64,000 nt of DNA. Origin: Octopus sinensis (taxonomy: Eukaryota). The stretch covers positions 23,560,001 through 23,624,000 of the forward strand of contig NC_043015.1 in NCBI RefSeq assembly GCF_006345805.1, written 5' to 3'. This document shows, piece by piece, positions 28,425 to 29,036 of this stretch (positions are counted from its first letter, which is position 1; each line of letters starts with the position of its first letter). Position numbers and translations under genes: made by a program. Below the pieces are notes generated by a model. That model had not been told where the DNA came from. It made no database searches and saw only the letters and a list, made by a program, of their open reading frames with translations.

Positions 28425-29036
28425 CAACAATATTAAGGAATGGCCTTGATAGGCCATTCGACCCACTAGAAAGAGCAGCTAAACTCAAACCGCTAAATAG
28501 TTGTAATTCAGAAACCAAAGGAAAATAAAAACACTTACCCTTATCATCTTTGGACTATGCATAGTTTCGACATACATATTGGCAAACCGATTTAATTAAA
28601 TTAAATTAAATCTATTTGCCACTGGCCTGTCTCGTCAGCAAAGAAACCAGGGAAATATATATCAACGAGGCGACAGCATCGACGCCTTGAGAATATATAT
28701 TCTAAATTTTCAAAATCTACCGTCACCACGCCACTTATCAGCAGCAAATATAAACTGCTGATTTAATTTCAGAATTAGCCAAAAAAATCATTAATTAATC
28801 AATATCAGGGTAGCAAAAAATTCAAGAGAAATTTTTCGCCACCAGCGGTCCAGTGAGAAAGGAAAAAATAGTCAACAGACTATATAATATACATTCAACA
28901 ATATTAATGGCCTATCAAGGCCATTCCTTAATATTGTTGAATGTATATTATATAGTATGTTGACTATTTTTTCTTTCTCACTGGACCGCTGGTGGCGAAA
29001 AATTTCTCTTGAATTTTTTGCTACCCTGATATTGAT
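28425..29036 (-). mobile_element. Hammerhead-containing retrozyme/PLE-like element (471-bp unit plus an inverted junction copy)
   Basis: caacaatattaa is repeated at 28425 and 28896. Segment 28906-29036 is the reverse complement of 28798-28907 joined to 28425-28458. (TA)n lies on both sides. Confidence 0.85.
28548..28643 (-). ncRNA. Type I hammerhead ribozyme, canonical core
   Basis: Minus strand: CUUUG-CUGACGA-GACA..UGGCAAA..GAUUUAAUU/AAUUAAAUC..UUUGCCA..UGUC-GAAA-CUAUGCAUAG-UC-CAAAG. Stem I is 5 bp, stem II is long with G10.1-C11.1, stem III is palindromic, and the cleavage triplet is GUC. Confidence 0.9.

Follow-up and report, generated by a model that had tools for sequence, protein, structure and literature searches.

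The window analysed here, a microsatellite-rich stretch of 64 kb from the 2.72-Gb Octopus sinensis genome (13,516 contigs), contains at 28425-29036 an insertion composed of two arms of opposite orientation, derived from the same repeat. Both outer ends of the insertion adjoin (TA)n: the left flank of the target is a tract at 28320-28424, and the right flank is a shorter tract at 29037-29051, which is shared with an adjoining element of a second family. The longer, direct arm (28425-28907, minus strand, 483 nt) starts at a site referred to here as E; its RNA sense is the minus strand, and it comprises a full 471-nt unit (28425-28895), after which it runs for 12 nt into the next one (28896-28907). 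The inverted arm (28906-29036, plus strand, 131 nt) starts at another site, T, bears the “tail”, and consists of unit positions 374-471 followed by 1-34. Compared to the unit, it carries 1 substitution and 1 indel in the 98 nt of positions 374-471, and is identical (34/34) across positions 1-34. The tail is the segment between T (unit ~370-374) and E (unit ~463-2); in the direct arm it occupies 28798-28895 (minus strand) and is predicted to form a 15-bp hairpin at about 28807-28844. The inversion junction, at which the arms overlap by 2 nt (AA, 28906-28907), falls into a copy of the hairpin region of unit positions 14-35. A sequence-only reading of the window had proposed both the 471-nt unit and an inverted segment at 28906-29036 that runs continuously across the unit's end into its start, and both observations are borne out. 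No ORF of note was found near the insertion.

The direct arm contains a type I hammerhead motif with intact core (28643-28548, minus strand). Stem I is formed by CUUUG (28643-28639) and CAAAG (28552-28548), the core CUGACGA lies at 28638-28632, GACA and UGUC of stem II close an insert of about 55 nt, and GAA (28568-28566) precedes the palindromic stem III, ACUAUGCAUAGU (28565-28554). With C17 at 28553, self-cleavage is predicted between 28553 and 28552, i.e., between unit positions 129 and 128. The conserved core elements CUGANGA, GAAA, and UH are all present, and a longer, bulged stem I is predicted by pairing of 28658-28639 with 28552-28532 (28532-28658, minus strand). A strict hammerhead descriptor matches once in the window and in none of 300 shuffled windows, and the region folds with a z-score of -4.5. 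The core layout at 28643-28548 thus confirms the earlier claim of an intact minus-strand core with a predicted cut at this position, and the motif, being the only one in the window that passes the strict descriptor, is predicted to be the best ribozyme candidate there, as had been proposed. The label “canonical” fits the core, but not the surrounding helices: stem III is a perfect 12-nt palindrome that as a monomer forms 4 bp and a tetraloop, stem II is unusually long, stems I and II both contain internal loops, and the catalytic fold of the monomer exceeds the minimum free energy (MFE) by 2.1-2.4 kcal/mol. Because of the palindromic stem III and a catalytic monomer fold above the MFE, a dimeric hammerhead form is possible by analogy with other repeat hammerheads described in PMC3088659 and PMC7229834.

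Rfam returned no hammerhead match for the motif, neither at the gathering score nor among 30 matches at E<=10, probably owing to the long insert in stem II; a match to an Rfam model is an aid to detection and lies outside the definition of a type I hammerhead. The three helices, with stem I left open, were evaluated for covariation: 91.8% of cells are paired and 9 pairs show two-sided change (0/500 shuffles), in a set of 14 sequences hand-chosen for diversity from 63 copies, in which the structure was taken from the window copy and related rows inflate the result. Paired stem positions change together: U-A is replaced by C-G in stem I, stem II shows G-C in place of A-U, and CCUA/UAGG occurs in a distant relative.

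The adjoining element, family 2 (29052-29701), is an unrelated hammerhead repeat in plus sense with a unit of ~482-489 nt, which shares the TA tract and the two-armed build with T and E ends. Its copy in the window contains CUGAUGA at 29519-29525, and because an A occupies the G12 position (29555), this hammerhead looks inactive; other family-2 copies have an intact core. The E start of the 471-nt family (28425-28441) and the T start of family 2 (29052-29067) are alike in cDNA sense (AACAAT..TAAGGA), possibly as a common initiation signal. Elsewhere in the genome, family 2 forms very young arrays (L240, L241, L272-L280) with up to 9 full units per arm and 0-0.9% divergence within 10/11 arrays. 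Many of these arrays are two-armed and bounded by T and E ends, and stem III of their unit has a 1-nt loop. The window also holds a two-copy tandem repeat at 30229-30521 (period 148, 85% alike).

Across the genome, a first look yielded 2505 candidates for the 471-nt unit, which are candidates and not a copy number. A 24-nt stretch of the core has 126 exact matches in the genome, compared to 0 for a control. Both exact core motifs are kept in 28/37 close and 11/26 diverged copies, i.e., among 63 distinct copies spanning the motif, a set that is enriched by sampling with the 24-nt core stretch. One subfamily has the U4C core CCGAUGA fixed (22/23 cores; L242-L271 and L022, L024, L025). Two whole cores are present in 3/219 arms (L025, L141, L142), and the locus at 28425-29036 has one. 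The locus belongs to a dispersed, non-coding 471-nt repeat family with an intact type I hammerhead motif, i.e., a non-LTR retrozyme; of the testable hallmarks of this class, the family has the non-coding unit, the type I hammerhead, and, in some copies, tandem double hammerheads. The element class is already known, and the family is an additional non-LTR retrozyme (a non-autonomous Penelope-like element). A literature search found no description of the 471-nt family or of arm ends clustering at the cut; Repbase/Dfam, subscription papers, and preprint supplements were outside its scope and could contain the family.

The locus itself is probably an ordinary, non-propagating copy. Because it has only one ribozyme, it cannot by itself release a 471-nt monomer or circle. 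The rule for an “active” copy given in a recent preprint (10.64898/2026.07.22.740005) would leave out monomer-type copies, and the locus is of this type. Several further observations concern the genomic surroundings of the family. A distant relative (L015, 300-1400; 72-76% in parts) directly adjoins a young copy and has the same build with a differently paired hammerhead. On contig C18 (L181-L204, 3.7-5.4 Mb), an insertion with an identical inversion breakpoint occurs ~15 times, likely by segmental duplication. Additional, unrelated type I hammerhead motifs in L124, L151, L154, L156, L165, L167, and L177 indicate that there are many such families in the genome.

The outer ends of the insertions were mapped in 84 distinct insertions from 120 loci (130 arms), which represent best-scoring candidates and not a random sample. 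As many as 113/130 arms begin at T (unit ~370) or at E (~463-2), two sites ~95 nt apart, whose start windows together make up 53 of the 471 unit positions. TA-type flanks are found at 45/51 T ends and at 51/62 E ends, the latter being a partly circular measure, since E itself resembles TA. Among the 40 two-armed, head-to-head insertions, 31 combine T with E, another 9 include one end of a different class, and homotypic pairs (T+T or E+E) are absent; with a stricter window for the end classes, the numbers are 30 T+E, 10 other, and 0 homotypic. The same combination was found in 7/10 two-armed insertions of the U4C sample (none homotypic) and in 14/17 of family 2, in which 8/9 two-armed arrays follow the rule as well. 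The arms are joined in various ways (n = 42): 22 junctions overlap by 1-6 nt, 12 contain inserted bases, 5 have a longer overlap, and 3 are blunt. A check for circular permutation among genomic copies, which the sequence-only reading had put forward, was run and revealed copies that share two fixed ends and are unpermuted, an outcome which that reading had itself listed as refuting; random circular permutation is excluded by these fixed starts. Arm ends at the cut are likewise excluded as priming sites, as the outer ends are ~130 and ~230 nt away from it, and pure fold-back self-priming is excluded for the locus at 28425-29036, where the loop orientation and the start at T fit a second primed cDNA. 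By analogy, T and E ends, a one-sided tail, an inverted arm, and a partial tandem make up the known Penelope signature. The earlier reading had missed this signature.

The inner ends of the arms cluster as well. Samples drawn with short queries, and counted in a 36-nt window that was chosen after viewing the young-subfamily data, contain 32 arm ends at unit positions 93-128, compared to 4 at 129-164. The corresponding pile-up zone of young arms lies on the 3' side of the predicted cut (28517-28552, minus strand). Restricted to T and E arms of the young subfamily, 29/57 passages terminate within the 36 nt that precede the cut vs. 3/28 in the next 36 nt (p 0.0003), and the zone has 1.83 stops per 100 nt vs. 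0.16-0.5 elsewhere, stronger hairpins included. Second passages stop at the cut in 8/14 cases and just after it in 3/6. With like query design, 20/36 stop before the cut in the CUGA subfamily and 7/36 in the CCGA (U4C) subfamily (p 0.003), which is older and has a somewhat weaker stem I (-10.9 vs. -12.6 kcal/mol); split by passage, the U4C stops at the cut amount to 3/30 first and 4/6 second passages. Family 2 shows the same direction without significance (13/32 before vs. 4/19 after the cut, p 0.22), in a count that omits the two arrays as well as edge-cut loci and whose query spanned the E site. The pile-up is absent (3 vs. 8) from a sample selected for crossing the cut, and first-passage totals pooled from length-biased samples were excluded from use. 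The substitution U4C is reported to lower hammerhead activity in vitro (PMC3088659). The young-subfamily stops before the cut, together with their lower number in the U4C subfamily, suggest that self-cleaved RNA is a real template for insertion. The pile-up may accordingly be read as run-off from the RNA 5' end that is made by the predicted ribozyme, with stalling at stem I as the rival reading.

What form the template takes can be narrowed down from arms that continue beyond the cut. The 483-nt direct arm at the locus passes over the cut site with an exact junction and continues into its own start, the junction is exact in 120/126 cut-site crossings, and the longest arms reach ~2.4 units. Given the exact crossing by the 483-nt arm and arms of up to ~2.4 units, a template that is longer than one unit (multimeric) or circular is required. 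The circular or multimeric, retrozyme-type template that had been proposed from the sequence therefore stands in this general form; the junction, however, is not evidence of a circle, and the copies are unpermuted with fixed ends. Indeed, the “end-to-start junction” is a point in the interior of the RNA, which every tail-bearing (T) arm crosses. Within 44 multi-pass insertions, 149 lineage variants are shared and 93 discordant. Variant sharing and the near-identical family-2 arrays fit a circle or a homogeneous multimer alike, while, for half of the events or more, the stops at the cut speak for linear ends.

Candidate partner enzymes are encoded in the same genome, which contains 5029 GIY-YIG candidates. 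Among 20 regions that were read, five full-length ORFs of 780-883 aa belong to one family, and a 775-aa ORF represents a second. The first family includes four 781-aa ORFs that are 98-99% identical (the youngest branch), with L161 and L162 at ~91%, and its 3' ends adjoin (TA)n. Both families combine RVT_1 with a C-terminal GIY-YIG domain, the RVT_1 match (E 1.2e-6) lying just under the curated cut-off and GIY-YIG above it. A BLAST comparison of the 471-nt unit with 40 of the 5029 candidate GIY-YIG loci gave no sequence link to any terminal repeat of a Penelope-like element (PLE). The matches that did appear were rejected: the one in L175 is an independent repeat copy beside a PLE, set apart by (TA)n, and the one in L178 is weak (85 nt) and lies in unrelated flank. 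Between the L167 ORF and a hammerhead located upstream of it, there is (TA)n as well as other sequence. We infer a PLE with reverse transcriptase (RT) and GIY-YIG domains as the partner of the 471-nt family. In the young PLE family (L163, 674-2110 and 2032-4374; L166; L175), an upstream frame of ~479 aa, which has no convincing Pfam match, overlaps the RT-endonuclease frame. The 3' region of one of these PLEs (L163, 5350-5392) contains a hammerhead-like element with a degenerate 5' core (UGAUAA for CUGANGA), a stem, and GAAAC, ~60 nt from the TA-flanked end.

The resulting hypothesis, to which we assign a probability of roughly 75%, is that the non-LTR retrozyme was inserted into (TA)n by a Penelope-like RT-endonuclease through two-site priming on both target strands. 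A source with at least two units would give rise to RNA that is partly self-cleaved. The enzyme would nick both (TA)n strands, with one cDNA beginning at T and the other at E, and each cDNA would proceed towards the RNA 5' end. About half would run off at the hammerhead-cut end, and the remaining cDNAs would continue into the next unit across a junction that is uncut or has been re-ligated, before the two cDNA ends are joined by microhomology. At 28425-29036, the E arm would have read through (483 nt), the T arm would have stopped at 131 nt, and both would have been joined over AA. Known properties of PLEs are compatible with such a sequence of steps: their insertions have a tail at one end and inverted arms (PMC8557442; PMC3846280), a PLE protein acts in vitro on AT-rich DNA by cutting as well as extending each of the two strands, two internal RNA starts delimit the tail, and the enzyme is predicted to be a dimer (PMC11167929). 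A more far-reaching version, which we hold only tentatively, is that the genomic copies of the family document the life cycle of the retrozyme, in which the Penelope enzyme primes both strands in each event, always one per internal RNA site.

Two alternatives leave two-site priming in place and concern the template. The main template could be a covalently closed 471-nt circular RNA, with rolling-circle reverse transcription starting at the two fixed sites. Such a circle would explain the arms that cross the cut with exact junction (120/126) and lineage variants that are shared between passes or arms of one insertion (25 shared and 4 discordant in L141, which also has 5 shared and 0 unshared private variants; 24 and 1 in L144). 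It would further agree with two-armed family-2 insertions of up to 7 full units per arm, with family-2 units that differ by 0-0.9% within 10/11 arrays vs. 1.5% between arrays, and with opposite family-2 arms that are as alike as same-arm units. Moreover, the 471-nt unit folds well as a circle (z -6.5), and similar repeats yield circles in coral, mussel, and axolotl (PMC7229834). However, about half of the young arms stop at the cut, although a closed circle offers no end to stop at, and the 8/14 second passages that stop there fit linear, cut RNA better. Furthermore, the best 40 of 2508 candidates include no long array of the 471-nt family, the longest arms having ~2.4 units, private variants are shared in 15 and unshared in 122 cases over the 44 multi-pass insertions, and homogeneous linear multimers account for the same data. 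A circle as the main template is hence possible but doubtful, and the young family-2 arrays are the best place to look for circles. Alternatively, the pile-up could reflect RT stalling at the extended stem I, and the ribozyme, perhaps poorly active, would play no role in transposition. Of the 32 ends, 17 map within the predicted extension of stem I (unit 108-128) and the other 15 directly before it, and the U4C subfamily has spread despite its altered core. In the anole PLE, cleavage is dispensable in vitro and no reads start at the cut (PMC11167929), and 8/9 Xenopus dimers are reported to have failed to cleave (10.64898/2026.07.22.740005). However, the tail hairpin (-16.7 kcal/mol) and the stem II domain (-18.6 kcal/mol) are stronger and give no such stops, and the pile-up has a sharp edge at the cut, with ends at 126, 127, and 127 and then only 4 in the next 36 nt. 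It also drops in the U4C subfamily, to 3/30 first passages, while stem I changes little, which makes stalling an unlikely explanation.

The remaining alternatives question the nature of the repeat or of the inversion. Tail, inversion, and TA targeting would look alike if the copies were 5'-truncated terminal repeats (solo pLTRs) of a protein-coding PLE, and not an independent unit, given that most PLE insertions are 5'-truncated. However, arms that complete a unit enter the next unit, and no mapped arm enters a shared body. There is also no ORF of note near the locus, and in the only case of a copy next to a PLE (L175), (TA)n lies between the two. We regard a solo-pLTR origin as quite improbable. 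That the inversion at 28425-29036 is an assembly or library fold-back artefact is barely conceivable: the locus is known from assembled contigs and the junction sits in a hairpin, but one substitution and one indel distinguish the arms, the inverted arm begins exactly at the T site of the family, and 40/84 insertions have the same build with different breakpoints.

A PLE origin of animal retrozymes has already been proposed (10.64898/2026.07.22.740005; PMC7229834). Mobilization by PLEs has so far been argued from co-occurrence and terminal-repeat similarity, to which the 471-nt family adds evidence from the structure of insertions. As for the role of the hammerhead in transposition, which is dispensable in vitro for the one PLE tested, the pile-up of arm ends provides a countable signal. 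The U4C subfamily represents a natural core-variant control, the genome also encodes young and intact candidate enzymes, and a suitable in vitro assay is available from the literature. The value of these observations lies in the family-wide footprint and not in the single locus.

Inversions that arise by twin-priming of LINE-1 are also explained by the priming of cDNA on the two target strands, followed by microhomology-mediated joining. The arms of the 471-nt family differ in that they copy overlapping sequence from two fixed sites and have no poly(A) tail. Metazoan non-LTR retrozymes (PMC7229834; 10.64898/2026.07.22.740005) are likewise built from non-coding, low-GC units that measure a few hundred nt and contain a single type I hammerhead, occur as partial tandems, and share their genomes with intact PLEs. 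With 471 nt, the unit exceeds the RNAs of 170-400 nt in the former source and is within the range of 51-972 bp in the latter. In contrast to these retrozymes, the 471-nt family is mostly dispersed, in insertions from less than one to 2.4 units instead of long arrays, and has a very long stem II, and no homology to the pLTR of a PLE was found. Non-autonomous elements of Chlamys, e.g., MRC1, are also non-coding passengers of PLEs with pLTR-like and head-to-tail insertions; in general, their 3' ends are similar to those of the autonomous partner (PMC8557442), whereas no such resemblance was found for the 471-nt family, which has a full hammerhead. With endonuclease-containing (EN+) PLEs (PMC8557442; PMC3846280; PMC11167929), the family shares two fixed starts that delimit a one-ended tail, an inverted, truncated arm, partial tandems, AT/TA targeting, and a hammerhead upstream of the start sites. 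It differs from them in lacking an ORF and in the length of its tail (~95 nt, and ~125 nt in family 2, compared to 30-40 nt). Finally, while the anole PLE used unprocessed RNA in vitro (PMC11167929), the ends of the 471-nt family cluster at the hammerhead cut.
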